Shown: positions 11,781-44,435, numbered from the stretch's first letter. The stretch: DNA of 64,000 bases from Opitutales bacterium (GCA_051117635.1 JBNPEH010000029.1:53861-117860); one strand, 5' to 3'. Notes: generated from the letters alone by a model not told the origin. Numbers and translations: made by a program.

Positions 11781-12335
11781 TTAACGTTTACCCGCCGGCA
11801 GCTCCACACCGACGACCGGCCAGCGCCAGCCCTGGCGTTCGAGCTGAAGCACAACGCCGTTGCGGAAGCGTGCCTCGAAGGTGGTCGGTCCGGTAAAAAA
11901 GGCCCAGGCCAGCGACAGGCCGTTTTCGTCTTCGGTGTCTCCGCCTGTCTCCGAGCCGGGCGAAGGCCCCGGGTCGGGGTCATCCTGTCCGAAGCCGGCC
12001 TGTTTCACCAGCCCTGCGAGTTTGTCGGGGGTGACCCACTCGGCGAGCAACCGGTCGATAACCACCGGGCCGAACAGGTCCGCCAGTCCCCGGGTGACCG
12101 TGCCGCCGGCTTCACCGTCCGCCGTCGTGCGCTCCACTTCGGCCGACAGCCGGGTCTGGAGGTCGTTCTTCAAGTGCTCCCGGACGCGCGGAAAGGCGAC
12201 CGCCTGTTCCAGTTTGGCCTCGTCCCCGGTCCGGAGCGCCGACCGCAACTCATACAGACTCCAATACGGCAACAGGCCGTAGCCGACCGGGATCGCGACC
12301 AGCACCGTGAAGAGGAGGCGTTGCAGACGTTTCAT
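11781..12335 (-). CDS. DUF2939-like protein
   Basis: N-terminal TM helix followed by PYWSLYELRSALRTGD..L...V.FPRVREHLK. Confidence 0.75.
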   Translation of the reverse strand: MKRLQRLLFTVLVAIPVGYGLLPYWSLYELRSALRTGDEAKLEQAVAFPRVREHLKNDLQTRLSAEVERTTADGEAGGTVTRGLADLFGPVVIDRLLAEWVTPDKLAGLVKQAGFGQDDPDPGPSPGSETGGDTEDENGLSLAWAFFTGPTTFEARFRNGVVLQLERQGWRWPVVGVELPAGKR

Positions 12336-12551
12336 GGCGGGTCCGGAGAGAACAGACCATTGAAGGTTGCCCGGATTGCCGGGGAAGGAAAACGCAAAAT
12401 GGCCCAACCGGCGCCGGATTGCGGGACAACCGCCACAGGGGGCGATTCGCCGCTCGCCGGGCCGGCCCGTTCCCGTCACCCAACCTTAACCCGGCCCGCC
12501 CCCTTTTTCCTTGTGGAACGGGAGGAGCCGCTGTTGGGTCTAGGTCCGGGC

Positions 12552-15056
12552 ATGGGTTCCTTAACTGACCTCGAAGCGGGCCTCGAAACGGGGCTCCTGC
12601 TTCCCGACCTGTGGCAGCAACAGGCCATCCGCCATCTCCAGGCCGGCCGCGATGTCGTGGTCGACGCACCCACCGGTTCGGGCAAAACCTACGTTTTCGA
12701 GCAGTTTTTCACCCAGAGCTTCCGCGGACAGGCCGTGTTCACGGTGCCCACCCGCGCCCTGGCCAACGACAAGCTCTACGAGTGGCGGGACCGCGGCTGG
12801 AACACCGGCATTCAGACCGGCGATGTGGCCGTCAATCTCGGGGCGCCGCTGATCGTGGCCACGCTCGAAACCCAGCGCGGGGCTTTTCTGCGCGGGGCCG
12901 GCCCCAATCTGCTGGTCATCGACGAATATCAGATGCTGGCCGATGACAAGCGCGGGGTTAACTACGAGCTGGCCCTCGCCATGGCCCCGCCGCACACCCA
13001 GCTGCTCCTGCTCTCCGGCAGTGTGGCCAACCCCGAAAAGGTGGTCAGCTGGTTGCGCCGGATCGGCCGGGAAGCTGTCCTGACCAGCCACAAGCAGCGC
13101 CCCGTACCGCAGGAGGAGGTCTTTTTCGAGGCATTGCGTCAGCGCATACCCAAGCGCATCCGGGGCTACTGGCCGCGCCGGATCGCCCGGGCCCTGGCCG
13201 CCGACCTCGGCCCCATCCTCATGTTTGCCCCCCGTCGCCATGCCGCCGAATCGCTGGCCCGCCAGATCGCGGGCGCCCTGCCCTGCGAGGAACCGCTGCT
13301 GTTGTCGCCCGAGCAAAAAACGCTCGCCGGCGAGGAACTGACCCGGCTGCTCCGCAACCGAATCGCCTTCCATCACAGCGGCCTGACCTACCAGCAGCGA
13401 GCCGGGCTGATCGAGCCCCTGGCCAAGGCCGGGCAGTTGCGCGTGGTGGTCGCCACCACCGGCCTGTCTGCCGGCATCAACTTTTCCATGCGGTCCGTCG
13501 TGGTGACCGACCGGGAGTACCGCACGGCTGAAAAAAGCCACCAGGTGCGCCCCGACGAACTGCTGCAGATGTTCGGTCGGGCCGGACGCCGCGGGCTGGA
13601 CGATCGCGGCTATATCCTGGTAACCGAGGGCAAGCCCCGTCTGGCAGAGGCCGCCCCGCTCAAATTGCGGCGCACCAACCAGGTCGACTGGCCGACCTTC
13701 GTCTCGATCATGGCCAATGCGAAGGACCGGGGCACCGGCCCGCTGCAGGCCACGCAGGCCCTGTCCAACCGCCTCTTCAGTGATCAGCGGGTGCCGCTTG
13801 GCCTGCGCGATTTTCTCTGCAAGTACAAGCGGCAGCCGGCCACCGTGGCGGTACCCCAGCCCGGGCCCGACGCCGGCAAGCGCAAGGCGATCGTCGAAAT
13901 GCAGAATTCCGGCGGGGGCTGGGAACGTCGCAAGGGTCCGCGCAAATGCCGCCTCGGCGACAGCTGGTTCTGGGACAGGAACGCGGAACAATGGATTCCC
14001 GCGCTTGCCTCACCCGTCACGCTCGCGGGCATCGAGGTGGGCTCGCTCTGCAAGCTGCCCGACGGGCCGGGCCGGGTCTACGGACGCGAAGTACCGCTGG
14101 CGCGCTTTCCGGAGGAGTCGGGCAGCGGCCAGGTTGTCCTGGTAAAATGGATACGCCAGGCCCTCCGCAGCTGGTTCCGTGAACGCGATCCGAAGAGCCA
14201 CCAGGCGGGTGTGCCCCGCCGCTGGGATCTGGTCGCCTTTGAACAGGAGATCCTGCCGCTGCTGCCCAAGCTCACCCAGGGCGGGCGGCTGGTCGATCTG
14301 GTCGAGCGCAAGGGCATGATTCACGCCCGGCTCAGTTACCGGGACGCCTCCATCTTCGCCTGGTTCGACGGACACGGAAAAGCCCTGCTCAACCCCCCGC
14401 TGCGGAAGGTGGAGCACGCCAGCCTGGCCGAATTGCGAGGTACGCTGGCCGAGGAGACGGCCGATCAGCGGGCGCTGACACCGGCCGAGATCTGGTTTGA
14501 ACTGGGGCTCATTACCCACCGGGGCGAACCCACCCGGCGCGGCATGATTTTTTCGTTTTTCAATCATGGCGAGGGGCTGGCGGTGGCGGTGGCGCTGGAA
14601 GATCCCGCCTACGCCACCGAGGACCTGCTCTACGATCTGGCCAACCTGCGGGCCGGGCACCGCTTCGACCGCCAGGGCGAAGGCTCGGGACGTCTGCGCG
14701 CCGTCTGCCGGCAGGCCTACCGGAACCGGACGTACCCGGGCTACCTGCGCAAAGGTGTTCCCAGCGAATACGGGGAAGGCGCCGCCGAAGTCGTCCGTCA
14801 GCTGGAAACCGATCCCCAGGCGCGGTATCGGCTCGCCCACGACGACCTGCGGGTCGGCGACATCGAGCGCGCCAGCCTCGAATTTCGCAGCCTCCTCCAG
14901 CACGTCGCCAAGGCGCCCGAATACCCCTGGGACCGCTGGATGGCCCTCAAGACCGCCGCCATCGACTACCTGAAGGGGCGACTCGCGCGCCCCACCCTCC
15001 CCGCTCTCCCGCGCCTCACCGCCGAACAGCGCGCCCGCTATCAGGAACCCGTCTGA
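12552..15056 (+). CDS. Ski2-like SF2 helicase with long C-terminal extension
   Basis: APTGSGKT, PTRALAND, DEYQ, LSGS, FHHSGL, QMFGRAGRRG. Confidence 0.88.
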   Translation: MGSLTDLEAGLETGLLLPDLWQQQAIRHLQAGRDVVVDAPTGSGKTYVFEQFFTQSFRGQAVFTVPTRALANDKLYEWRDRGWNTGIQTGDVAVNLGAPLIVATLETQRGAFLRGAGPNLLVIDEYQMLADDKRGVNYELALAMAPPHTQLLLLSGSVANPEKVVSWLRRIGREAVLTSHKQRPVPQEEVFFEALRQRIPKRIRGYWPRRIARALAADLGPILMFAPRRHAAESLARQIAGALPCEEPLLLSPEQKTLAGEELTRLLRNRIAFHHSGLTYQQRAGLIEPLAKAGQLRVVVATTGLSAGINFSMRSVVVTDREYRTAEKSHQVRPDELLQMFGRAGRRGLDDRGYILVTEGKPRLAEAAPLKLRRTNQVDWPTFVSIMANAKDRGTGPLQATQALSNRLFSDQRVPLGLRDFLCKYKRQPATVAVPQPGPDAGKRKAIVEMQNSGGGWERRKGPRKCRLGDSWFWDRNAEQWIPALASPVTLAGIEVGSLCKLPDGPGRVYGREVPLARFPEESGSGQVVLVKWIRQALRSWFRERDPKSHQAGVPRRWDLVAFEQEILPLLPKLTQGGRLVDLVERKGMIHARLSYRDASIFAWFDGHGKALLNPPLRKVEHASLAELRGTLAEETADQRALTPAEIWFELGLITHRGEPTRRGMIFSFFNHGEGLAVAVALEDPAYATEDLLYDLANLRAGHRFDRQGEGSGRLRAVCRQAYRNRTYPGYLRKGVPSEYGEGAAEVVRQLETDPQARYRLAHDDLRVGDIERASLEFRSLLQHVAKAPEYPWDRWMALKTAAIDYLKGRLARPTLPALPRLTAEQRARYQEPV

Positions 15057-15204
15057 GGGCATTTAAAGGTCAACGCCCATTGTCGTCGCTGAAAAGCATC
15101 ACCCGAAGCCCCAAAGGCCCCAGGGGCATACGTCCCGTGGATGATTGTGCGGCAGAGTCGACCGCCGGGCACCCGTTGGGGCATCCGGTTGCCGTGACGT
15201 AACG

Positions 15205-15274
15205 CTCCGCTTCGCTTCGTCGATAGCGATCCCGATAGCGATCCCGATCAAAACGCTGTTAAGTTAGTGACATT
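15205..15274 (+). repeat. REP-like repeat family C (CTCCGCTTCGCTTCGTC-GATAGCGATCCC x2-...TAAGTTAG)
   Basis: Near-identical to the reverse complement of about 37125-37196. Confidence 0.8.
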
Positions 15275-15307
15275 CCGCCCTGACCCTGACCAGCAAATTG
15301 GCTCGTT

Positions 15308-15323
15308 TGGTGAGAAGTTCGGG
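15308..15323 (+). mobile_element. Isolated right end of MITE family A
   Basis: TGGTGAGAAGTTCGGG followed by TTAA; identical to the end of the 43938-44290 copy. Confidence 0.6.
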
Positions 15324-15443
15324 TTAAGGCGCTCTGTTGAATTCGAGACCGGACCTCCCTTGGCGATCGCTGACCTGGGCCTTACAGACCGCGTTCATCC
15401 CGCTCGCTGAAGCAGCGCGATCCGGTCAGCGCCTTCGGCAATC

Positions 15444-15512
15444 TGCTTACTGCCCCGCTGCCCGCTGCCTTCTGCCTTCTGCTCTCTGCGCCCTGCCCTC
15501 TGCTACCTGCCC
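15444..15512. repeat. Degenerate heptamer tandem repeat (TGCNNNC) x about 9
   Basis: Seen directly; overlaps the stop codon of the amidase-like gene. Confidence 0.8.
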
Positions 15513-16759
15513 AGGGCCGTCTGCAAACCGGCAATGACCGCGTCAGCGTACTCGTCAATGAGATTGGGCCGCGGCTTGCCACGAAACGGCTTCAGGCCTT
15601 CATAGCGCCCGGCCTGGATGTGGGCGTAATCGGGCACGCTGTTCATAATATAGGGCTCGAGGAAGACGACCGGGGCGTCGTAGAGCCGGTTGGCCATCAG
15701 GTTGCGGCTCCACAGGTAGGGGTTGTCCGGATACGGTTGCAGGGCGTTGCCGCCGCCGTAGGTGTAGGGAGGCAAATCCGTCGCTTCGGCAAGGGATCGG
15801 CTGAGCGCCTCCCCCAGCACCAACTCGTCCGCCCACCAACCGGCCAGCAGCCGCTTCACCAGATCGAAGCGCTGGTCCTCCAGCGCGAGTTCGCCGGGCA
15901 GGTAGGCGCCGTTTACCAGCACGTGCAGGTTCGTGTCCGGGACCAGGGTCGGCTGCTCGGGATCGGGCCAACCGGCCGCGTTCAGGTGCAGGCACAGCAC
16001 CAGGTCCGGCTGCAGTGTGGTATTCACTGTCTCGGCACGCGCGCGGATTTCCGCCACCCGGTAAAAGACGAGATCCCGATAGGTCCTCAAGAGCCCGGGG
16101 AAGGCCGGGGCTTCCTCCGTGAGATCCGGCTTGCGTCTTTTCAGGAGCATTCGAGCCGGCTCCTCCAGGTCGGGATCCTCAGGCCGGAGATCGGTGACTG
16201 GCTGACTGTCGGCCCGGACCAGGGACACGCGGGTGCCGAGCGGTTCCAGCCGGTCGCGTATGGTTTCGGCCACCGCCAGCACCAGATCCCCCTCCACCAC
16301 CCAGGCATCGCTCTCCCGGATCCGGAACCGCCGGTGTTCGATGTCCGCCCAGTCCCCGCCGATGTGCCCGGGATCGATGGCGAGGTGCAGATCTTCGAGG
16401 CCCCGACCGCCGAGAAGACCGGTTTCGCCCAGACGGTCGGTCACCCGGTCGCGCAGGGTCCGGTCCGGCTTCCCGCCGGCTCCGGAAAACCGGAGGATGT
16501 ACGGGGTCTCGATCCGGTCGGTCAGGATGATCGCGCGCCGGTCGTCCCAGGTAATCCAGGGCGCGGGGTCCCCGGAGACGAAAAGCGCATGGATCAGGCT
16601 GCCGAAGGTGTCGGCGCTGATCCTTTCCTGAAAGGGGTCCAGCGTGGACCAGTCGGGCAAGTCCGCGAACAGGCTCGTCTCCGGCTCGTGACCTGTCGAT
16701 GGCGTGAGGGTCAGGCAAAAGCTCAGCAGGAGGACCGACAAGGGGCGCGGCGCAGACAT
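15503..16759 (-). CDS. Exported N-acetylmuramoyl-L-alanine amidase-like protein (Amidase_3 fold)
   Basis: Signal peptide; IDPGHIGG, EGDL, LCLHLNA, VFLEP motifs. Confidence 0.75.
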   Translation of the reverse strand: MSAPRPLSVLLLSFCLTLTPSTGHEPETSLFADLPDWSTLDPFQERISADTFGSLIHALFVSGDPAPWITWDDRRAIILTDRIETPYILRFSGAGGKPDRTLRDRVTDRLGETGLLGGRGLEDLHLAIDPGHIGGDWADIEHRRFRIRESDAWVVEGDLVLAVAETIRDRLEPLGTRVSLVRADSQPVTDLRPEDPDLEEPARMLLKRRKPDLTEEAPAFPGLLRTYRDLVFYRVAEIRARAETVNTTLQPDLVLCLHLNAAGWPDPEQPTLVPDTNLHVLVNGAYLPGELALEDQRFDLVKRLLAGWWADELVLGEALSRSLAEATDLPPYTYGGGNALQPYPDNPYLWSRNLMANRLYDAPVVFLEPYIMNSVPDYAHIQAGRYEGLKPFRGKPRPNLIDEYADAVIAGLQTALGR

Positions 16760-16937
16760 GATGAAACCTGATAAAGCAAAAGCACGCGACCCTGGCGAGG
16801 GAAACGAAAGTCCTTGCAAGCGCGGTGCGCCCACTGAACGGCCCAAGAGCCGAGGACTCCATCGAGTGGCCGGCTCCTGGGCCCCGCCACACGCTGCAGG
16901 GTCCCGGCGGCGCGGGCACCCCTGCCGAGGTTGTGCC

Positions 16938-17870
16938 TCAGCAGATGACGCCCCTGGCCACATGCGGGCCGTGGCCCGGCGGTCGCTCGCCCGGAGCCGG
17001 TCGCACCCAGCGCGGATCGACGGCTTCCGTGGCGAGCTGATAGCGCGAGTCGGTCGACAGCCGGACCCGGTCCTCGCTCGTGTTGTCGAGCGAAGCATGG
17101 ATCAGATACATGGGGAAAATCAGGATATCGCCCATCCGGAACTCGGTCGTCAGCCAGCGCCCGCCCAGGCTTTGCCGCAGACGGACCGGGTTGTCCGTCA
17201 GGTGACCGGCATGGGCACGCTCGGAACGGTCGATCTCCGCTTCGGGCCGGTTCGCACAGAAGCTGTCGAAATCGCCCTTCAGGTAGCCGGCGATCCGGTT
17301 GCGCTTCCGGTGCGAGTCTTCCAGGACCATGAGACCGCCCTGCTCGTAGTCGATGTCGCCCAGCGGGGTCCAACAGGTGAACAGGTGGTGCGTGCCCCGG
17401 CCCATGAAGACGAGGTCGCAATGCGGCGGCGTGCCGTTGCCGGGCGGCGTCGTCCGGAGCCAGGTGTAGTCGAAGTGCATGGCCGGCCCGCCCAACAGGG
17501 CGTCCATCAGCGCCATCATCGCCGGACCGTAGATCACGTTTTCCACCGCCGGCTCCTCGTAGGCGTATTCCAGCAGGCCGGCCGGCTTTTCCGCGTCGGG
17601 CAGCAGGCGCCCGGCTTCGAGCGGGCCGTCCGGGTCCACCCAGTCCGCGTCCGCCAGCTTCTGCAGGATTGAACGGCGGGCTGCCACGACACGGTCCCGG
17701 TCATGAAACCCGCGGATCAGCAGATAGCCGGTCTCGGCCAGTTGCTCCCGAAGCGCTTCGGGATCGCCCAGGAGGTGGGTCGCCTCCTCCATTGCGCCAA
17801 GCGCATCGGGGGAGGCATCGAGGGGCCGTCCGCCACTGGACAGCTCGATAGAAGGGGGTGAGAAAGCCAT
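16938..17870 (-). CDS. Phytanoyl-CoA dioxygenase (PhyH) family Fe/2OG dioxygenase
   Basis: HCD (HxD), WTPLGD, GGL, GDILIF...IHAS, RLS.D.RYQ. Confidence 0.88.
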   Translation of the reverse strand: MAFSPPSIELSSGGRPLDASPDALGAMEEATHLLGDPEALREQLAETGYLLIRGFHDRDRVVAARRSILQKLADADWVDPDGPLEAGRLLPDAEKPAGLLEYAYEEPAVENVIYGPAMMALMDALLGGPAMHFDYTWLRTTPPGNGTPPHCDLVFMGRGTHHLFTCWTPLGDIDYEQGGLMVLEDSHRKRNRIAGYLKGDFDSFCANRPEAEIDRSERAHAGHLTDNPVRLRQSLGGRWLTTEFRMGDILIFPMYLIHASLDNTSEDRVRLSTDSRYQLATEAVDPRWVRPAPGERPPGHGPHVARGVIC

Positions 17871-17936
17871 GGGCTGGAACATACAGGATCGGGTCTTGCA
17901 TTAGGAATGACCGGACTGGCAAGTTGTTTGTGTTTT

Positions 17937-18797
17937 ATGGTATCAAAGCTGAAGTCACCTCCGCGGGCCTTCGTCGTCCGGTTTCCACATCGATCGCCTC
18001 TGGGAAGGATCACCGCAGGGGGGGAACACCAAACCCGAGGGGAGGCCACCCGGACTGGTTTGCGTATTCTGGGGGAATGCGCCCTGGTTGTTTCGGTGGC
18101 GGGCAGCTGCCGGTTTCTCGATGCCGACGGCTCGCAGACAAATTTCCCGCCCGGCACCGCGCGCATCCTGCTGCCGGAAATCGGCCATGCCTACGGCCCC
18201 CCGCCCGGCCGATGCTGGCACCAATGGTGGCTGACCTTCGACGGTCCGGTCTTTCGCCTCTGGCGCGACCTGGGGCTGTTGGCAGCGCTCCGCAACGGAT
18301 GCGCCCTGCACCAACCCGCCGAGGCCTATGCCACCTTCCGTGAAATCCTGGCTGCGGCCGAACGGCCCGAATCGACCCTGACGGCAGTGACCCGGCTGCA
18401 GACTCTGCTTGCCGCCTGGATACCCGCCTCCCCGGGCCCCGCGCCGGCTGGAACCGGGGAAATGCGCGCCTGGCTCCACCTGGCACGGGAGGCGCTTGCG
18501 GCGGTCGGCCCCGACGAATCACCGCTCCCCGCCGTCGCCCGGTCAACCGGCCTGGGCTATGAAAGCTTCCGGAAGCGCTTCCGGGCAGTGACGGGCGAAA
18601 CCCCCGGCAAGTTCCGCGAACGAAAACGGCTCGAGCAGGCCTGCCAGCTTCTGCTCAACACGCGGCATCCCCAGAAAGAGGTGGCGCACCGGATCGGCTA
18701 CAGCGACCCCTACCACTTTTCCCGGCGCTTCAAAAAACTGACCGGGCGCACGCCGGGTGCTTTTCGCCGGAATCCGTCCCACCTGAGAACGGCGTAG
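17937..18797 (+). CDS. AraC-family transcriptional regulator
   Basis: C-terminal double HTH (GYSDPYHFSRRFKKLTGRTP); divergent from the PhyH gene. Confidence 0.9.
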   Translation: MVSKLKSPPRAFVVRFPHRSPLGRITAGGEHQTRGEATRTGLRILGECALVVSVAGSCRFLDADGSQTNFPPGTARILLPEIGHAYGPPPGRCWHQWWLTFDGPVFRLWRDLGLLAALRNGCALHQPAEAYATFREILAAAERPESTLTAVTRLQTLLAAWIPASPGPAPAGTGEMRAWLHLAREALAAVGPDESPLPAVARSTGLGYESFRKRFRAVTGETPGKFRERKRLEQACQLLLNTRHPQKEVAHRIGYSDPYHFSRRFKKLTGRTPGAFRRNPSHLRTA

Positions 18798-31419: not shown

Positions 31420-32829
31420 TCAGAACAGGCGGCTCTTCTCAAACCGCCAGACGGCGATGGCCATGATAACCACCGCCATGAAGATCAGCGCCAGTTGGTT
31501 GATCCACAGCTCACCCAGCCCGCGGTTGCCCCAGAGGATGGCCTGAAAGGCGTCGGCGGCGTAATAAACCAGCGTCAGCCGGCTGAAGAACTGGATCGTT
31601 TCGGGCATGAAAAAGACCGGCCACCAGGCGCCGCCGATCGCGCTCATGATCAGGATCAGGAAGGTGGCCAGGCCGTTTGCCTGGCCGGTGGTCCGCGAGA
31701 TCGCGGCGATCAGCATACCGAAGGATGTGGCGGCAACCGCCGCCAACAGCGCAATCCACATCAGGGGCACGAACCGGTCCCAGAGATCGATCCCGAAAAA
31801 GAGCCAGCCGGCAGCGAAATAGACGGCCAGCTGCAGCGTACCCAGCACCAGCCCGAACAGGTATTTGCTCATCAGCAGCTCGGCCCGGGTGGTTGCCCCG
31901 GAAAGCAGGCGCACAAAGAGGCCGGCTTTCTTCTCGTCGAACAACGAAATCGCGCTGCCGGTCAGCGAAAACATCAGGAACATCAGGCCCCAGCCGCCGA
32001 CCGAACGGGTTACCCCGGGGTTCGTTACTTCCGCTCCGATTACCTGCTCGCGGTCGAGTTCAACCAGCCCGCTCAGCTGCTCGCTCAGCGACGGGCCCGC
32101 CGGCCCGGCACCGGACGGGGCTGCCCCGGGCTCCTCACCTGCAGACGGATCGGCTTCGGGGGCAGGCGGCAGAAGCGCATCGGCAAAGGCCCAGTCGGGC
32201 GAAAGGGGGTTGTTTGTCTGCAGGGAGGCGAGGATCTCGGCCTGGTCCACCGGGAAAAACTCGGTCACCACCTCAGCGATACGCTCATTGAAGGCCGCCA
32301 GGTCGTCCGGAGAACTGGTCTCCAGCAGTTCACTGCGAAACCGGCCCAGCAGGATGGGCGGCGCCTGGGTGAAGAGCGTCCGTTGAAGCAGCCCCTCCAC
32401 GATGTTCGTCTCGATCGCATTGCGGGGATTGCTGAGATAGCGAACCCGGAAGGCAAAGGCCTCCAGATCAATACTGTCCGCATGGAAGACCAGGCCGAAG
32501 CGCAGGTTTCCGGCCTCGATCCCCTCCCGCAGGCTGGCCTCGGTAAAGGGCGCCACCGGCTCGTCCTCGCGCGTGACCCCGCGCACCACGCGAAGCCCGT
32601 CGGTGCGATCCAGCGCATCGACGATCCGCCCGATCATGGGGTCGCCACTGCTGTCGGCGATCCCGATAACGGTGCCGCTGGGCCCGTTGCTCGAACTGTT
32701 ACCGAAGATATTGCCGAAGATGTAGATCAGGACCAGCGGCACCAGAAAGGTCAGCGAGACCGCCGGCTTGTCCTTTAAAAAAGCGAGCCAGTCCTTGCGG
32801 AAAAGGGTCCAGATGCGTCGGGGGTGCAT
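31420..32829 (-). CDS. ABC-2 type exporter permease
   Basis: N-terminal TM, large periplasmic loop, EKKAG..RL, GGAWWP. Confidence 0.88.
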   Translation of the reverse strand: MHPRRIWTLFRKDWLAFLKDKPAVSLTFLVPLVLIYIFGNIFGNSSSNGPSGTVIGIADSSGDPMIGRIVDALDRTDGLRVVRGVTREDEPVAPFTEASLREGIEAGNLRFGLVFHADSIDLEAFAFRVRYLSNPRNAIETNIVEGLLQRTLFTQAPPILLGRFRSELLETSSPDDLAAFNERIAEVVTEFFPVDQAEILASLQTNNPLSPDWAFADALLPPAPEADPSAGEEPGAAPSGAGPAGPSLSEQLSGLVELDREQVIGAEVTNPGVTRSVGGWGLMFLMFSLTGSAISLFDEKKAGLFVRLLSGATTRAELLMSKYLFGLVLGTLQLAVYFAAGWLFFGIDLWDRFVPLMWIALLAAVAATSFGMLIAAISRTTGQANGLATFLILIMSAIGGAWWPVFFMPETIQFFSRLTLVYYAADAFQAILWGNRGLGELWINQLALIFMAVVIMAIAVWRFEKSRLF

Positions 32830-32830
32830 G

Positions 32831-33748
32831 TCAGTCGCGGAAGGATCGTCCGGTCAAATGAAGAAAGAGCGCCTCCAGGGTCGGCGTCCGGATGTGTATG
32901 TCCAGGTTCGATACCCCGAGTCCTTCGGTCTCACCAAAGAGACGGGACAGCCGGAAACCGGACCGCGGCCGGAACAGCAGGTCACTCCCGCGGTCGACCC
33001 ATTCGCCTTCCCCGGCCAGCCGGTCCGCGAGGGGCCGGGCCGTGTCGGGTTCGCTGAAAACGATCTCCTCCTCGAAAGGCAGCTGCCGCAGGAGTTCACG
33101 CTGCGTGCCTTCGGCGATGATACGACCCTGGTCCATGATCGCCACGCGGTCGCAAAGCCGGGCCACCTCCTCCATATAGTGCGTCGTGTAGAGAATGGTC
33201 ATGCCGGCCTCGTTGAGCGACGCCAGCAGGTCGAAGATGGCATTCCGGCTCTGCGGGTCCACGCCCACGGTCGGTTCGTCGCACAGCAGGACCCGCGGTT
33301 CATGCAACAGCGCGGCAGCGATGTTCAACCGGCGCTTCATGCCGCCCGAAAAAGTGCTGACCGTCGTCCTTCGACGGTCGATCAGCCCGGTCCGCTCCAG
33401 CAGCAGGTCAATCCGCCGACCAAGCTGTTCGCCGCCAAGGCCGTAGAGCCGTCCGAAAAAACGCAGGTTCTCCTCCGCGGTGAATTCCTCGTAGAGGGCG
33501 ATTGTCTGCGGCACGAAGCCGAGACCCGCCAGCAGATCCCGCCGGTGTGGATCGCAGGGCCGACCGTCGAGCTGGTAGCGCCCCCCGGTGGCGGCGTGAT
33601 AACCCGACAGGATGTGTATCAGCGTGGTTTTACCGGCACCGTTCGGCCCCAGCAGCCCGAAGAAACTGCCGTCGGGAACCTGCAGCGTCACCGCGTCCAA
33701 CGCGGTGAACGTTCCGTAGCGTTTCGTAATGCCTTCAAGCCGGAGCAC
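32831..33748 (-). CDS. ABC exporter ATP-binding protein
   Basis: GPNGAGKT, FSGGMKRR, DEPTVGVDPQSR, TTHYMEE. Confidence 0.93.
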   Translation of the reverse strand: MLRLEGITKRYGTFTALDAVTLQVPDGSFFGLLGPNGAGKTTLIHILSGYHAATGGRYQLDGRPCDPHRRDLLAGLGFVPQTIALYEEFTAEENLRFFGRLYGLGGEQLGRRIDLLLERTGLIDRRRTTVSTFSGGMKRRLNIAAALLHEPRVLLCDEPTVGVDPQSRNAIFDLLASLNEAGMTILYTTHYMEEVARLCDRVAIMDQGRIIAEGTQRELLRQLPFEEEIVFSEPDTARPLADRLAGEGEWVDRGSDLLFRPRSGFRLSRLFGETEGLGVSNLDIHIRTPTLEALFLHLTGRSFRD

Positions 33749-33874: not shown

Positions 33875-33983
33875 TGAGTCCGTTGACCATTCGCTTGAAG
33901 AGCGCAGCTTCGTAAACCGACTCAAGCAATCCGGAACCAAGTGCTGAATGACCTTTCACTGCCGCATCCACGATTATCTTTCC
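33875..33983 (-). pseudogene. Internally deleted GxxExxY-family gene remnant
   Basis: GKIIVDAAVKGHSALGSGLLESVYEAAL joined directly to C-terminal-like FKRMVNGL. Confidence 0.7.
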
Positions 33984-34009
33984 TGGTTGCTGGCGCCATC
34001 TCCGCTTGG

Positions 34010-34362
34010 CCCGAACTTCTCACCAGAATGGGGAAACAGGGCGGTAAATAATGCTGAGCGAGGGATTTGCAGCATTTCTTCGAAATGCACGTTCGTGGTG
34101 GGGCCCTGTTTCCCGATTCTTTTCGCCCACATGCGCGATCTGCGGCGTGTTATTCTCGCTGCGCTCGTTGAGGTGTCGCCCTGCGGGCTCGGTAGTCGGG
34201 CTGGAAACCGCCTGGTTACGCACCTGAGTGCACGCCCAGCCGGTTTCGCCCTCCCGCCGTCACCCTTCGGGTTATGGCGGACACGCCGCCTTCCGCCGTC
34301 GCTTTTCGAGCTATGGCGGACAGGTGCAGCTCATCACATCTGGGCTTCATGAGAAGTCCGGG
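34010..34362 (-). mobile_element. MITE family A, full copy 2 (353 bp)
   Basis: TIRs CCCGAACTTCTCA/TGAGAAGTCCGGG; exact 4-bp target duplication TTGG. Confidence 0.9.
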
Positions 34363-34479
34363 TTGGCTCCGTCATTTTCTTCCATCCCCGATTCACTTCG
34401 TTCATTACCCGCTGGCGGCATTTTTGACTTTGGGTCTTCGGGTCTTGAGCGCAGCGGGCGCGAGATTCATTCCTTTTCT

Positions 34480-34538
34480 GGCCAACGTCGAGTGTATGTG
34501 CGGCGCGGAGCGCCGTTACATACCACGCCTGGATGTGG
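34480..34538 (-). other. attC site 5 (R'' mutated AAC to ATC)
   Basis: Minus strand CCACATC-caggc-GTG(G)TATGT...ACATACAC-tcgac-GTTGGCC; extrahelical G. Confidence 0.75.
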
Positions 34539-34539
34539 T

Positions 34540-34800
34540 TTAAACCCCCAGGATCTCGGTGATCTGCACTTCCTTTGAGGCGTGGTCGATCCAGTAGGAG
34601 AACAGGAACTCTTCCAGAAGAAGGTGCTCGATCGGTCGCCCCTTCGCGTCGGTGGTCTGGTAGTCCCCGATCTGCTCGGGCGATGCGCTGATCCGGTCGA
34701 TCAGGTCGACGACCTTTCGTTGTTTCGGTTTTGGGAGGCCGAGCGCGAACGCGACGGCCTCGGCGGACAGGTAACAGCCATAGCCGGGAGCCTCAGCCAT
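34540..34800 (-). CDS. Putative RelE/ParE-fold toxin of unrecognised family (cassette)
   Basis: 86 aa, overlaps the upstream small gene; RelE-like layout ending YWIDHASKEVQITEI. Confidence 0.6.
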   Translation of the reverse strand: MAEAPGYGCYLSAEAVAFALGLPKPKQRKVVDLIDRISASPEQIGDYQTTDAKGRPIEHLLLEEFLFSYWIDHASKEVQITEILGV

Positions 34801-34996
34801 GACCGATCTGGTCCTTGAGCTCGGAGACGGAGGTCCTCTTGCCTGCTTTCATCTCGTCCAGACGACGGGCGGTCTCTTCCTTCCATTCCTTCGATGCCTG
34901 CCCCAAGCGCACAATAAAAGCCGAAACTTCCCGACGCTCAGACTCAGTGAGTTTCGTAAGCTGTTGCTTTAGAGATAGTAATTCAGCCTCACTCAT
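34793..34996 (-). CDS. Putative antitoxin (cassette)
   Basis: 67 aa, helical, L..L...ER.E and R.DEM.AGK..S motifs; 8-nt overlap with the putative toxin. Confidence 0.6.
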   Translation of the reverse strand: MSEAELLSLKQQLTKLTESERREVSAFIVRLGQASKEWKEETARRLDEMKAGKRTSVSELKDQIGHG

Positions 34997-35046
34997 TTGA
35001 AGACTTTGCCCTAACCTCAATCTGGCGTCAAGTTTCCGAATTCTTC

Positions 35047-35136
35047 CCACAACGATGATTGGAGGTGCGATGACAGGCAGCCGGCCTGCTCAGCTGGGCG
35101 GGTGACTGGCAGCGTTACTTCCCGCGCCTGTTTAGG
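35047..35136 (-). other. attC site 4
   Basis: R'' CCTAAAC overlaps the hicB stop codon; R' GTTGTGG; imperfect L boxes. Confidence 0.7.
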
Positions 35137-35344
35137 TACTTACCTCCACGTATACGGTTTCCGAACTGGGCTCCGGGATCAACTCTCCTCCTTCTTTCAT
35201 TCCCTCCAAGTGGAATTCAATCGCTTCTTTGATCAACGCCACGACTGCTTCCCGGCTCTCTCCAGCCGCAACGCAACCCGGCAAATCCGGGACATAGGCA
35301 CCCCAGGACGTCGGTCCGCGCTCAAGGACTACTGTGTATGCCAT
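35132..35344 (-). CDS. hicB: HicB-family antitoxin (cassette)
   Basis: YTVVLE....WGAYVPDLPGCVAAG.S.E.....IKEAIEFHLEG......IPEP. Confidence 0.92.
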   Translation of the reverse strand: MAYTVVLERGPTSWGAYVPDLPGCVAAGESREAVVALIKEAIEFHLEGMKEGGELIPEPSSETVYVEVST

Positions 35345-35528
35345 TTTTCGATTCCGGCTTGTTTCCAGATATTTTTAGGGTTCCGGCAGGGATGTCGACG
35401 CCAGGTTTCCCGGCCACCGTAACCGTCCCAGGCCTCGTGGGATGCTTGTATTGTCGGTGGCTTGCACGCTGACGCACCTGATACCACCCATCCTCCTTTA
35501 AAACAGCCAATACCTCCCTGACTTTCAC
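35322..35528 (-). pseudogene. hicA: HicA-family toxin, frameshifted near the C-terminus
   Basis: GTG start; GW..VRQ..SHRQYKHP.RPG.VTV.G.P..DIP.GTL, and the expected NIWKQAG is in another frame after an A5 run (35372-35376). Confidence 0.8.
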
Positions 35529-35575
35529 CGCTGCTATTCCTTCCCTTATCCTTTCCCTTCCCTTATCCTTTCCCC

Positions 35576-35668
35576 GCATAACGTCACTGATGAGCGGTAA
35601 GCGGCTGGCGCTCCCTGTGCGAACCAGAGGGAGTGACGGACGTGGTTCGCTCCATCGTCTTGTTCTCC
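35576..35668 (-). other. attC site 3
   Basis: GGAGAAC-aagac-GAT(G)GAGCG...CGCTCATC-agtgac-GTTATGC. Confidence 0.85.
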
Positions 35669-35671
35669 ATT

Positions 35672-35964
35672 TTACTTCAAAGCCTCTCGATTTGTCCTGG
35701 GATTCCTGCGCAGATCCAAGATACGAAAAACAAGGGCCTTCCCCTCTATGATTTTGTAAAACACAGCATAAGGGAAATTCTTTACGAGCAGTCGATGAAA
35801 TCCCAAACTTTTCGGTGGATCCCGGCATACAATCGAAGCGATTCGATCCCAGCGAAAACTGAAGCCAGGAAGTAATCCCCCAATCCCGCTTCCTTCTCAT
35901 CATAAAAATCCCTGCCGTTTGCGATGTCCTCGATTCCGGAGGGTAAGATTTCAATCTCGGTCAT
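35672..35964 (-). pseudogene. ParE/RelE-family toxin, frameshifted
   Basis: DFY...EAGLGDYFL...LRLYAGIH; after a 1-nt shift at about 35802 it reads FHRLLVKNFPYAVFY...RILDLRRNP to TAA at 35672. Confidence 0.8.
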
Positions 35965-36175
35965 TGCGATCCAACAACTGCCGCTTTGCTTCCTCCCAGG
36001 GTATCGGCTTCTCTATTCCGGCCTCATATCGTTTCTGGGTCGCTTCCAGTTCCTCCCGGTGCCAATCTGGTGACTCTAATTCATCTTCGTGAGAACGAAT
36101 GTCATCCCAAAGGTCCTCCATGAGCTTAAGTTTTTGATCCAGAGACATATCCTTTATCTGCTCTTTTGTGATCAT
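35951..36175 (-). CDS. Addiction-module antitoxin (TIGR02574-like, cassette)
   Basis: MS..QKL.LME.LWD.I, SPDWH.EEL, PWEEAK. Confidence 0.85.
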   Translation of the reverse strand: MITKEQIKDMSLDQKLKLMEDLWDDIRSHEDELESPDWHREELEATQKRYEAGIEKPIPWEEAKRQLLDRNDRD

Positions 36176-36234
36176 AGGGAGATTTTCGCCCATTGCCCAC
36201 GTATCGGCAAACCCCTTTTCTTTCTTTTTCTTTT

Positions 36235-36301
36235 CGCGAACGATTAAGTGAGCGACGGCATGAGCGGAGCGAATGACGTTCCTCTCCACTGACTGTTCGA
36301 A
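36235..36301 (-). other. attC site 2
   Basis: TTCGAAC-agtca-GT(G)GAG...CTCAC-ttaatc-GTTCGCG, 1 nt after the relE stop codon. Confidence 0.85.
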
Positions 36302-36302
36302 A

Positions 36303-36563
36303 CTACGGTCTATAGATTTCCTTACGATGACCGACACGAAGAACCAGTACGACCAACAGACTATCTCTTATGTCGTAGATTACTCGATACATACCAATTC
36401 TTATTCTATAGGACTCTTCCCCTTTCAACTTTTTGCTACCAAGAGGTCTGGGATCGGACTCAAGAGATTTTATCTTCTCAAGGATTCTTAGTGCGTCATT
36501 CTTTGGAAGCCCCTTGAAATCCATTCTAGCACTTTTGGAGAACTCGACCTTATAGGATGCCAT
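36303..36563 (-). CDS. relE: RelE/StbE-family toxin (cassette, intact)
   Basis: YKVEF...A, L..DPRP.GSKKL.G...YRIRIG.YRVIY.I.D..L.V.V..VGHRKEIY. Confidence 0.92.
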   Translation of the reverse strand: MASYKVEFSKSARMDFKGLPKNDALRILEKIKSLESDPRPLGSKKLKGEESYRIRIGMYRVIYDIRDSLLVVLVLRVGHRKEIYRP

Positions 36564-36771
36564 CAGACTTTAGTTGGGCAACAAATTCTTCATAGCCAAC
36601 CGTGGGTTCAGCCCGTCTTTCTCTTATGTCTTTCATATCCTCTAAATCTTCAAGGAGACTCGCTTTGAGTGCATCATTTACCAATTCGGACATGGATTGG
36701 CGGGTTTCCGCCGCCTTGTACCTTAATGCCTGATGTACAGGTTCTTCCAGATATAGTGTTGCTTTACTCAT
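36550..36771 (-). CDS. CopG/RHH-type antitoxin (cassette)
   Basis: ATLYL...H.ALR.KAAET..S.SELVN.A....L.ED.ED.....ER..EP. Confidence 0.85.
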   Translation of the reverse strand: MSKATLYLEEPVHQALRYKAAETRQSMSELVNDALKASLLEDLEDMKDIRERRAEPTVGYEEFVAQLKSDGIL

Positions 36772-36780
36772 ACATACGGA

Positions 36781-36806
36781 ATGACGCTATGCCGTCATAA
36801 CGTCAA
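36781..36806 (-). promoter_or_regulatory. Cassette-internal promoter/operator of the TA pair
   Basis: -35 TTGACG (36806-36801) followed by the palindrome ATGACG-N6-CGTCAT (36781-36798). Confidence 0.6.
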
Positions 36807-36816
36807 TACTTTTTTC

Positions 36817-36920
36817 TTCGAACGACCGGGAGTTGAGCTGCGAGGCCCCGAGCGACCACGCCTCGAGACAACCACCACCTATCACGAGGGGCCTCGTCTG
36901 CCTCCAACGACATGTTATCC
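36817..36920 (-). other. attC site 1
   Basis: GGATAAC-atgtc-GTT(G)GAG...GAGGCCCC/GGGGCCTC...CTCAAC-..-GTTCGAA. Confidence 0.85.
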
Positions 36921-37106: not shown

Positions 37107-37348
37107 GCCAACGGGGTCAAACGTGAATGGTACTAACTTAACAGCGTTTTCATCGGTATCGCTATCGGTATCGCTATCGACGAAGCGAAGCGGAGATGGC
37201 GTAAGCAAATCGATTACGTAAGCCAATGCATATTATTTCCTTATGCATGTTCGATCCCGATTTGCTTACGCCATCTCCGCTTCGCTCCGTCGATTTCGAT
37301 CCCGATTTGGATCAGGACCCTTAAGTTAGCGCCAACGGGGTCAAACGT
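37107..37348. repeat. Composite REP-like cluster: 18-bp direct repeats enclosing inverted family-C repeats
   Basis: GCCAACGGGGTCAAACGT at 37107 and 37331; CGCCATCTCCGCTTCGCTYCGTC inverted at 37179-37201 and direct at 37269-37291. Confidence 0.75.
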
Positions 37349-37563: not shown

Positions 37564-39057
37564 TCAGCTCTCGACCTGGATGCTGTATTGCTCGATGCGC
37601 TTGCGCAGGGTGGCGCGGGTCATGCCGACGATGCCGGCGGCCCGGGCCTGATTGCCCTCGGTCTCGCGGAGGGCGCGCTCGATCATGGCGGCTTCGAGTG
37701 TCTGGAGCATCTGCTTGTCCTCCTGGTCGCGCAGGTAGCGGAAGACCTGATCCATGAGGGTATCCCAGTCCGGGGCACTGGCGGCGAAAGGAGGAATGGT
37801 ATCCCCGCCGGCCACGGGGGCCTCGGCTGAATCGGGTTCGCTGGTGGGCTCCCCGGCGGCCTCGCCACAGCGACGGATTTCGTCGGGCAGGTCCTTGATG
37901 AGGATGGTCTCGCCCTGGGCTATCACCGCGCTGCGGTAGATGACGTTTTCGAGCTCCCGGACATTTCCGGGCCAGTGATAGGTCTTGAGCAGGTTAAGGG
38001 CGGCCGGCGACAGCGTTTTGACGTGCGTCTTGCGGTCTTTGGCCAGCCGCTGGACCATGAAGTCGACCAGCTCGGGAATGTCCTCCTTCCGCTCACGAAG
38101 CGGGGGCAGGTGCACCCGGACGACATTCAGCCGGTAATAGAGATCCTCCCGGAATTCCTTCTTCTCGACCAGTTCCTCGAGCGGCTTGTTGGTGGCGGCG
38201 ACCAGACGCACGTCGACCTTGATGGTCTCGGAGCCCCCGACGCGCTGGATCTCGCCCTCCTGCAGCGCCCGCAGGATCTTCGTCTGGGTCGACAGCGACA
38301 TGTCCCCGATTTCATCGAGGAAGATGGTACCCTTGTCGCAGAGCTCAAACTTGCCCGCACGCTGGCCGGTCGCCCCGGTGAAGGATCCTTTTTCGTGACC
38401 GAACAACTCGCTCTCGATCAGGTTCTCCGGGATGGCGGCGCAGTTGACCGCGATGAAATTCCCCCGCGTGCGGTGCGAGTGCTGATAGATGCAGCGGGCA
38501 ACCAGCTCCTTGCCGGTGCCGCTTTCGCCGGTGATCATCACGGTGGCGTCACTGGCGGCGACCTGACCGATCAGCTTGAACACCTCACGCATGGCCTCGC
38601 CCGAGCCAACGATGCCTTCCTTGTAGTCCTCCGAATTAAGCAACGGCTGGTAGGCGTTCTCTGCTTTGTCGAGGTCGGCATGGCTGCGAGCGGCGTTTTC
38701 GGTCATGGCCACCAGCTTCTTCACGTCGAAGGGCTTGGACACGTAGTCGAAGGCGCCGAATTTCATCGCCTCGATCACCGTCTGGGTGTTCGAGTACGCC
38801 GTCATCAGGATGATCATGGCGGTGGGCACGGAAGTCCGGAGATGTTGCAGTGTCTCGAGACCGCTCATGCCCTCCATCCGGTTATCCAGCAGGATAACCT
38901 CGGGATTGATCGACTCGGCTACCTCCAACCCCTTTTCCCCGCTCTCGGCCTCGACGACTTCGAAGCCCCGCGAGGAGAGCACCCGCTGCAGGGAGTAGCG
39001 GATCTCGGTGTCATCATCGATGACCAGGACGGTTGCGTTTGCCTTGGATTCAGCCAT
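37564..39057 (-). CDS. Sigma54-dependent NtrC-family response regulator
   Basis: Receiver domain, [37 protein letters not shown], Fis-type HTH. Confidence 0.95.
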
Positions 39058-39125
39058 GGTGCGGACCTCTCGCCCGAACAAAACCCGCTAAGGTTAGCGG
39101 AGTCAAAAAGCGAGTATTACCGCAT

Positions 39126-44360: not shown

Positions 44361-44435
<75 letters not shown>

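Follow-up and report, generated by a model that had tools for sequence, protein, structure and literature searches.

Clusters of attC sites lacking integron integrases (CALINs) are common, and their origin is debated, with off-target insertion, loss of the integrase and rearrangement each under consideration. As characterised by Cury et al. (2016, PMC4889954), a CALIN is an attC cluster without an integron integrase and holds about five attC sites on average. The subject of the present analysis is a 64,000-base stretch of an Opitutales bacterium assembly (GCA_051117635.1 JBNPEH010000029.1:53861-117860), hereafter the window, in which positions 34480-36920 carry a minus-strand array of four complete cassettes, each a predicted toxin-antitoxin (TA) module. 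The core of this description, that is, attC-bounded cassettes that constitute a CALIN and that are all TA where complete, is supported by the results below. That the locus is a cassette array built by an integron is very probable, and the whole reading, which adds the history of an eroding relic, is given a probability of roughly 0.6.

To the extent of the features given by Cury et al. (2016), the locus resembles other CALINs in having several attC sites of the same orientation within 4 kb, each closing a cassette, with no intI on a 193-kb contig, and in being a small array in a genome that also holds remnants of integrons, a possible origin of CALINs put forward in that study. It is unlike them in that every complete cassette is TA and in that its sites are recognised by clade-specific models. 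Cassette loss killing has been shown in Vibrio cholerae, where 19 TA cassettes stand among 179 and the integrase is working (Richard et al. 2024, PMC13108822); as in the Vibrio sedentary integrons of that account, type II TA pairs occur here as two-gene cassettes with their own attC. In contrast to the Vibrio array, the window has four all-TA cassettes, no working integrase was found and two toxins are broken, and by this comparison the locus looks like an end state and not a stabilised reservoir. Integrase-less arrays of halophiles are described with TA systems as cassettes or just past the last attC, and with an association with group II introns and insertion sequences (IS) (Mob DNA 2021, PMC7923331); similar open reading frames (ORFs) were read by eye beside the second of two integrase gene fragments on contig C5 of the present genome. 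The halophile arrays of that report differ in carrying non-TA cassettes too, and in belonging to a different lineage and attC family. By analogy with both of these systems as they are reported, an array of TA pairs alone agrees with the established view that cassettes of this kind are hard to lose (PMC13108822, PMC7923331).

The window lies on contig C35 (193 kb) of an assembly (G000) of 46 contigs that is 97.7% complete, and the comparison set comprised 41 related genomes (none of the same genus, six of the same family) and 14 control genomes. Recognition of attC was by two clade-specific covariance models and not by the general model of IntegronFinder. The first, R1, was built from 12 short attC sites of G001, a genome of the same family but a different genus, and holds zero window sequence; the second, R2, was built from 31 sites of the window's own genome, all outside the window. 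The R1 scan was filter-free and covered both strands of all 64,000 bases. A preliminary description of the window had named five imperfect palindromes as attC sites, which are numbered here in minus-strand order:

36817..36920, minus strand: site 1, proximal attC-like palindrome, degenerate; R′ GTTCGAA; R1 8.4 bits, E 5.5, rank 8 of 10
36235..36301, minus strand: site 2, attC; R″ TTCGAAC, R′ GTTCGCG; R1 E 0.043, R2 E 0.0039
35576..35668, minus strand: site 3, attC; R″ GGAGAAC, R′ GTTATGC; R1 E 0.0067, R2 E 0.002
35047..35137, minus strand: site 4, atypical attC; R′ GTTGTGG; R1 E 0.041, no R2 match
34480..34538, minus strand: site 5, best-preserved attC; R″ CCACATC, R′ GTTGGCC; R1 E 1.8e-9, R2 E 3.4e-11

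Ten R1 matches were obtained in the window at E<=10, and the best four are sites 5, 3, 4 and 2, all on the minus strand. The ends of three of these fall exactly where they had been placed before, and site 4 begins 1 nt further out (35137 vs 35136). With R2, sites 5, 3 and 2 rank first among 37 window matches, from which sites 4 and 1 are absent. At least three or four of the sites are thereby shown to be attC, and the observation of attC-bounded cassettes is confirmed. Of the five sites originally named, three (2, 3 and 5) fit both models, site 4 fits R1 and site 1 fits neither significantly. Sites 2-5 each begin 1-3 nt past, or overlap, the stop codon of the preceding minus-strand ORF, as had been stated. 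The terminal triplets, the L helix, the positions of the extrahelical bases and the cassette rule are those of attC. The ends had been described as running from AAC to GTT, and GTT is present in 5/5 R′ boxes; the R″ boxes carry AAC at sites 1-3 and, in the register first proposed, at site 4, but the R″ of site 5 carries ATC in place of the expected AAC. The middle A of AAC is also missing in 5/31 other sites of the same genome. By eye, site 3 has the layout 7-5-L″(bulge)...L′-6-7, and site 1 has spacers of 5 and 8 nt with its bulge displaced by one position. The R″ of site 4 is CCTAAAC or ACCTAAA depending on the register, and its R1 fit includes several non-canonical pairs; site 4 nevertheless aligns over its full length with a long G001 attC (57/99 columns identical, by our own count of invariant columns). 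Site 5 aligns with attC sites of G001 and of its own genome.

The helices on which both models depend were examined in the training sets. In the R1 set 95.8% of cells are paired, a value reached by 0/500 shuffles, and when partners were slid by 1-3 columns merely 29-40% were paired. The corresponding value for the R2 set is 94.2%, again matched by 0/500 shuffles, with slid partners across both sets giving 25-40%, and compensatory changes on both sides were found for 7/7 pairs of the L-box helix in the training sets. With regard to specificity, unrelated loci of the relatives (93,760 bases in all) gave a best R1 match of E 0.2, and 26/41 related genomes have no match at E<=1e-3. A genome-wide R1 search, in which 150 of 2223 first-look candidates were scored, gave at least 27 sites in the window's own genome at E<=1, and 31 R1 sites were counted in the loci then extracted, all outside the window. 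The training sites of R1 were picked by eye at intergenic positions; their coordinates came from a scan of the arrays in G001 and G003 for AAC...GTT segments ranked by energy, which was noisy in coding DNA and served for coordinates only. Rfam at gathering thresholds returned nothing attC-like in the window. Folding of the five sites as single sequences gave z from -2.7 to +0.4, with z < -2.2 in 3/10 strand-folds, and the minimum free energy structures of single sites were frequently other than the attC hairpin, so that single-sequence folding is not a useful test here. A hand-made pattern (AAC, spacer, bulged helix, spacer, GTT) matched 960 times genome-wide and was dropped as too loose. A scan for terminator-like structures gave seven matches, none on any attC site. 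A sigma-70 promoter scan found three matches vs 1.8 +/- 1.5 in shuffles; it was no better than shuffles, and no promoter claim is therefore made.

Cassettes joined by an integrase should show an R″ that matches the R′ of the site before. The match counts first given for the window, 7/7, 5/7, 4/7 and 6/7, were reproduced exactly by script, the perfect one being that between the R′ of site 1 and the R″ of site 2. When adjacent and non-adjacent junctions were compared over the four variable R-box positions, the window gave means of 2.75 (n=4) and 1.00 (n=16), respectively. The same comparison gave adjacent means of 3.86 vs 1.10 for the array on contig C25, 3.00 vs 1.25 on C36, 3.00 vs 1.33 on C3, 4.00 vs 1.75 on C5, and 3.15 vs 1.35 in G001, where one row was mis-registered.

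As set out by Nivina et al. (2016, PMC5027507), the extrahelical bases of attC sit on the top-strand AAC arm, the extrahelical base at bottom-strand position 16 is usually G, and another, at position 23-24, is a conserved T. The sites of this clade are like those canonical mobile and Vibrio sites in their AAC/GTT R boxes with spacers of about 5-6 nt, in an L-helix bulge at position 16 on the top-strand AAC arm, in a conserved unpaired A (bottom-strand T) at 22-23, and in a central part of variable length, here 59-104 nt (PMC5027507). In the clade models the bulge occupies position 16, on the AAC arm of the coding strand, and unpaired AA at positions 22-23 is present in 29 and 30 of 31 sites of the window's own genome and in 12/12 sites of G001. 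The base at position 16 is a top-strand G in 25/31 and 8/12 of these sites, which means that the recombining bottom strand carries C; in this respect the clade is unlike the canonical sites of the same source, where G is usual (PMC5027507). The attC geometry is canonical and the position-16 base is not. The unpaired L-box G of the preliminary description does exist; its strand is the coding (top) one, and not the bottom strand as in the textbook arrangement. The clade seems to use a variant attC code, with C at bottom-strand position 16, together with an IntI that has an N-terminal extension of about 130 residues.

Within 34480-36920 there are eight short minus-strand genes, arranged as four overlapping or abutting pairs:

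36550..36771, minus strand: cassette 1 antitoxin, ribbon-helix-helix (RHH)/RelB-like, 73 aa; profile matches all weak
36303..36563, minus strand: cassette 1 toxin, RelE/ParE family, 86 aa, frame intact; PF05016 E 9.6e-14
35951..36193, minus strand: cassette 2 antitoxin, Unstab_antitox/TIGR02574 "addiction module component"; PF09720 E 5e-14
35672..35964, minus strand: cassette 2 toxin, ParE-like, frameshifted (frames 35782-35964 and 35672-35806)
35322..35528, minus strand: cassette 3 toxin HicA; PF07927 E 2.5e-16, profile positions 2-50 of 58 only
35132..35344, minus strand: cassette 3 antitoxin HicB, 70 aa; PF15919 E 4.7e-13
34793..35050, minus strand: cassette 4 antitoxin, Unstab_antitox-like, with a likely internal Met start at 34996 that gives 67 aa
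34540..34800, minus strand: cassette 4 toxin, RelE fold, 86 aa, of a family without a Pfam model

Profiles and folds together indicate that all four complete cassettes are predicted type II TA modules of two genes each (4/4 pairs), with binding modelled for pair 4 only. In cassette 1 the genes overlap by 14 nt. The antitoxin matches FitA-like RHH (E 0.0018), RHH_1 (E 0.047) and an NCBIfam RelB-like model (E 2.2e-4, below cut-off); the toxin spans profile positions 1-89/89 of PF05016 and scores 28.1 bits against TIGR02385 RelE_StbE, for which the cut-off is 27.9. The cassette 2 antitoxin scores 34.0 bits against TIGR02574 (cut-off 31.9), and its start at 36193 was taken from an 80-aa homologue in G001. 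Neither fragment of the cassette 2 toxin has a Pfam or NCBIfam match; intact ParE-like homologues of 103 and 100 aa from the same genome align to it in two frames, with residues 9-58 in frame -2 and residues 54-99 in frame -1, the switch falling at a short run of G near 35802-35806. In cassette 3, the C-terminal end of HicA is in another frame from about 35371-35375, at an A run: an intact 62-aa HicA from G030 aligns over residues 1-52 in one frame, ending at "GTLK", and a HicA-like C-terminus is found in the other (ORF 35329-35487). HicB is 67% identical to that of G030. The "addictive" force of the two modules with frameshifted toxins is doubtful, judging from their reading frames. A HicA on contig C14 (L047, G000:C14:79000-82725, 2377-2623) matches profile positions 1-23 of 58 only, and its expected C-terminal part was seen by eye in a second frame; it may be another disarmed toxin.

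Cassette 4 had been listed as a pair that was not recognised, and it now appears to consist of a RelE-fold toxin with its predicted binding partner, as far as models can indicate; all four complete cassettes are two-gene modules, as had been claimed. The antitoxin matches PF09720 (E 9.4e-4) and TIGR02574 (E 0.015) weakly. The 20 near relatives of the toxin are all unnamed and lack Pfam domains, the toxin family counts 250 representatives at E<=0.001 in a large library, and none of the 67 members scanned (the toxin and 66 relatives) has a Pfam match. An AlphaFold2 model from a 67-row alignment (pLDDT 90.8) predicts a beta-alpha-alpha-beta4 fold, for which the best Foldseek matches are RelE toxins (1wmi_A, E 3e-5; 3g5o_B, TM 0.80, rmsd 2.1); the sequence profile also matches 1wmi_A (E 2.9e-4) and a chain named Toxin RelE (E 0.0067). 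In the modelled complex the antitoxin would wrap around the toxin, with a score of 0.87 vs 0.02 for the best control, at least 96% of contacts in agreement between runs and a partner pLDDT of at least 90. The score mark is reached by 58/80 solved complexes and 2/110 mismatched pairs; RelBE-type complexes have already been solved, and the pass may therefore partly reflect likeness to them. An earlier toxin model, for which 19 close homologues were aligned, reached a pLDDT of only 53.9 and was set aside as poor, and the profile of those 19 found nothing among the sequences of the PDB (best E 1.2). Neighbours of the toxin in the ESM Atlas are named RelE/ParE (0.96), which is treated as a lead only since they are likely to be its own cluster. 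In G004, the match to the cassette 4 antitoxin is a lone gene interrupted by an IS-like ORF, and its surroundings show nothing attC-like apart from a partial R1 match of E 0.2.

Evidence that cassettes have moved as units comes from the relatives. Positions 35657-36242 of the window, which correspond to cassette 2, are 87% identical to G001:C22:3814-4399, and the DNA outside is unrelated on both sides. The homology begins at C|GTT of the upstream R′ and ends after the downstream R″ and its spacer, those 12 nt of the 3′ attC (window 35657-35668; L031 3814-3825 in G001) being identical. The remainder of that attC is unrelated in G001, and the window version resembles sites of its own genome. The G001 copy has the same toxin frameshift and one more. 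The G001 locus is a cassette array with a high-GC host gene at one end; its cassettes, at least 14 in number and mostly of a single ORF, share one strand, and an imperfect AAC...GTT palindrome stands after each. Homologues of the cassette 1 toxin in two Verrucomicrobiota records (L061 and L055; 59-65% identity) have an R1 site directly after them, and L061 has an additional R1 site ahead of the TA pair; across the 80 loci scanned, R1 gave 12 matches in 8 loci at E<=1.

Downstream of site 5 the array does not end cleanly. The claim that it is made entirely of TA cassettes stood for the four complete cassettes, but a fifth, non-TA cassette survives as a stump, which is split by a repeat:

33901..34479, minus strand: fifth cassette stump, GxxExxY type, non-TA, without its own attC
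34006-34364: dispersed element of about 355 bp, splitting the fifth cassette; more than 100 matches genome-wide, full or partial

What remains of the fifth cassette is its leader (34365-34479) plus some 110 nt from the start of the gene region (33901-34010); this gene part matches TIGR04256 GxxExxY at E 2.7e-4 over profile positions 8-34 of 116, where the homology ends. The dispersed element is present on nearly all contigs, with about 40 copies near full length at 85-97% identity. Positions 33901-34010 and 34363-34492 of the window are contiguous at C36:35618-35854 and C21:35559-35739, and the ~355-bp element is thus an insertion; the empty sites show an overlap of about 5 nt that may be a target duplication. 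GxxExxY genes recur in the genome as attC-bounded cassettes with a common leader, several of them truncated (C1:22682-23216, C21:71164-71512, the region of C35:139326, and the C25 and C36 arrays).

The TIGR02249 scan of C35 gave no match at E<=0.001, a setting at which ordinary tyrosine recombinases are also caught (there were matches in 14/14 control genomes), and the earlier statement that the window encodes no tyrosine recombinase was borne out. The locus has three to five sites in 2.4 kb and no integrase beside them, where CALINs are defined by at least two attC less than 4 kb apart; a complete integron has intI and attI beside the array, and there is no intI on C35. The term integrase-less was therefore correct for the locus, but the genome has IntI genes elsewhere, all of them broken, and no match in it reaches the TIGR02249 cut-off:

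G000:C5:80591-81715: C5 intI copy, residues 16-450 in at least two frames when aligned to G003 IntI (483-residue open frame)
C5, further along the same locus: second intI copy, residues 147-362 only with a TAG inside, adjoining IS3-like and group II maturase-like ORFs (by eye)
C3:9428-9955: C3 intI fragment, N-terminal part only, residues 28-234

At the C5 locus (L009, G000:C5:70000-88744, ~11900-18600), the broken intI lies divergent from low-GC plus-strand ORFs with three R1 sites, and the locus then continues with a group II maturase-like ORF, an IS3 OrfA-like ORF and the second, truncated intI (ORFs named by eye). Four R1 sites follow the C3 fragment as three follow the broken C5 gene, and two further arrays run off contig ends, on C25 (8 R1 sites) and C36 (5 R1 sites). 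Among relatives, IntI above the TIGR02249 cut-off was found in 7/41 genomes and in 3/6 of the same family, where a fourth has a partial match; at the threshold used, 0/14 control genomes have IntI. R1 matches occur in 6/9 genomes with IntI at E<=1e-30 vs 9/32 others, although kin are not independent. The IntIs of the clade (for example L023/L029, G003:C120) are open frames of 442-500 aa around a family match of 315 positions, and the extra N-terminal stretch of about 130 residues is common to the G003 protein and to the broken copies in G000. In G003, a complete IntI is followed by divergent cassettes whose sites, read by eye as AAC-AAGTC...TTTAGC-GTT, obey the cassette rule.

In 3/3 larger arrays of the genome with an assembled distal end, the cassette that adjoins host DNA holds a TA or TA-like pair, and TA pairs also stand beside isolated attC sites:

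C25 array, last cassette: VapB and PIN, preceded by a HicA-containing pair
C36 array, last cassette: unnamed 83-aa ORF and DUF2283, with a Pfam match for the second gene only
C3 array, last cassette: Phd and YoeB
C8 and C36, isolated attC sites: each after an Unstab_antitox and ParE-like pair, with no Pfam match (C8) or one below cut-off (C36) for the toxin
C8, isolated attC site: after an RHH and PIN pair
C14 end: unnamed 81-aa ORF and DUF2283, and HicB and HicA

Other isolated attC sites follow GxxExxY genes or adjoin dispersed repeats, and thus not every stray attC is linked to TA.

These observations are best explained by a history in which an integron integrase built the array by site-specific recombination at G|TT, at a time when the IntI of the lineage was active. 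Non-TA cassettes would have been excised or deleted free of cost, and loss of a TA cassette would have killed or handicapped the cell; the costliness of that loss is the proposed reason why TA cassettes remained ("cassette loss killing"). The recognisable intI copies would later have been inactivated, and the relic would now be eroding, with frameshifts in two toxin genes, decay of two attC sites and insertion of a high-copy repeat into the final cassette. We infer that addiction exerted the selection and that the array is at present immobile. Of the two alternatives originally offered, the residue of an array is favoured over an island mobilised in trans because all IntI copies found are broken, frameshifts affect two toxin genes of four, the attC sequence has decayed at sites 1 and 4 and departs from AAC (ATC) at site 5, and the distal cassette is truncated and split by a repeat.

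Several results weigh against this history or limit it. Neither model gives a significant score for site 1, and for site 4 only R1 does, so that the array is firmly bounded by three good sites and not five. Four cassettes are few, and the all-TA content on its own is therefore not strong statistics. The homology of cassette 2 stops 12 nt into its own attC, which is unexpected under simple co-inheritance of a cassette and could be the trace of an exchange in the R″ box or close to it. The bottom strand has C at position 16, where known sites usually have G. R1 missed all three long IntI-linked sites of G003 (0/3), and it found nothing in a 9-kb IntI locus of G018; it is blind to long or more distant attC sites, and the link to a complete integrase rests accordingly on the by-eye reading of G003 and the shared consensus. 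The 41 relatives include no genome of the same genus, so that gain or loss at the locus is unseen. Both frameshifts were called from the assembly sequence. The assembly is 97.7% complete and an intact intI may be unassembled, a gap that leaves some room for mobilisation in trans.

Such mobilisation would make the array a working mobile TA unit, excised and reinserted as a movable stress or anti-phage island by an integrase from an unassembled gene, from an incoming element or from a minority of genomes in the population. Sites 2, 3 and 5 retain full attC architecture and score with both models, the RelE/ParE toxin of cassette 1 and the RelE-fold toxin of cassette 4 are in intact frames, and several of the arrays in the 46 contigs run off contig ends, where an intact intI could be missing; the C5 intI is moreover nearly full length, and its frameshifts were likewise called from the assembly sequence. 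Against this stand the absence of any IntI above cut-off in the genome, in which three IntI-like loci are broken or partial, the ATC of site 5 and the degeneracy of sites 1 and 4, the frameshifts in 2/4 toxins (one of them also in the G001 copy) and the toleration of a repeat within the last cassette. No result here bears on anti-phage activity, and the working mobile unit is considered unlikely. A little less likely again is that the array is a piece of the main integron that was moved by rearrangement between dispersed repeats, its TA-only content being an accident of sampling. Dispersed repeats do flank the array, with the ~355-bp element (34006-34364) at one end and a palindromic element (37107-37348) at the other, the leader after site 5 also follows the last attC of C25, and TA pairs are adjacent at the distal end of the C25 array, so that a moved end would be TA-rich. 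This would leave unexplained why TA pairs gather at the distal ends of source arrays, and a survivor effect would still be needed one step earlier; in addition, no breakpoint or second cassette copy was found in the genome, where the matches to a 7.7-kb query were repeats only.

Far less credible than either is an ordinary chromosomal island of TA operons, gathered piecemeal, in which the palindromes are terminators or antitoxin operators that resemble attC. TA operons are often clustered and GC-poor, the folding z-scores of the sites are not unusual, no Rfam family matches them and the loose pattern of AAC...GTT with a bulge recurs 960 times, all of which speaks for such an island. It is contradicted by the models, which were trained elsewhere and pick these sites and little else across 64 kb, by the alignment of the sites with the attC of cassette arrays, by the better match of each R″ to the preceding R′ than to non-adjacent ones, by the beginning of the G001 homology at an R′, and by the lack of a terminator-like match at the five sites.

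The eroding-relic reading can be extended to the genome as a whole, which might hold a natural series of integron erosion in which arrays were whittled down to TA-only stumps after the death of the integrase and the toxins were then disarmed by frameshifts; this extension is put forward tentatively and is more doubtful than the history of the single locus. The four-cassette locus, the single TA pairs with an attC on C8 and C36, and the last TA cassettes of the three larger arrays would possibly be the stumps of such a series. Two frameshifts, both at short homopolymer runs, would be instances of the disarming, one of which could have travelled with its cassette between genera. If the series is real, cassette loss killing would filter what integrons leave behind, beyond stabilising living arrays, and TA-only CALINs would be a recognisable fossil of that filter. 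The locus itself is a further example of a known element type and overturns nothing known: it is a clean, well-bounded CALIN whose TA-only content, together with the broken integrases, points to erosion with an addiction filter. Three points are modestly new: an end state with TA cassettes only that recurs in a single genome; an attC family from outside the well-studied Proteobacteria that has canonical geometry but C in place of G as its first extrahelical base, which is useful for tuning attC detectors; and a small RelE-fold toxin family outside Pfam.

The array is flanked by host genes that were named by eye from translations, an ABC transporter (31420-33748, minus strand) and an NtrC-type regulator (37564-39081, minus strand). 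GC content is 0.41-0.55 across ~34800-36900 vs 0.62-0.69 in the flanking genes; the lower GC that had been noted for most of the array thus holds over that interval, but not for the fourth cassette (34500-34950), which at about 0.61 is host-like. Relatives retain the NtrC-type gene together with the divergent gene beside it, the proteins being about 58-67% identical. In five longer loci downstream of the NtrC-type gene no homologue of the ABC permease or of nine TA proteins was found, and 2/5 have a distant ABC ATPase match (29-33%). The second of the flanking repeats is as follows:

37107-37348: palindromic element resembling a miniature inverted-repeat transposable element (MITE), with 18-nt identical direct repeats at its ends, 49-nt inverted arms (92% complementary) and 14-nt terminal inverted repeats

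Partial copies of this MITE-like element occur on C39 and in relatives, and a similar piece adjoins an attC on C8. The sole Rfam match in the window at gathering thresholds is a tRNA gene (44361-44432). Some relatives of IS110 target attC sites, and on C8 (L043, G000:C8:113000-117000, 1670-1936) a short ORF that by eye is like the C-terminal part of an IS110-family transposase sits between a VapB/PIN-type pair and an attC.

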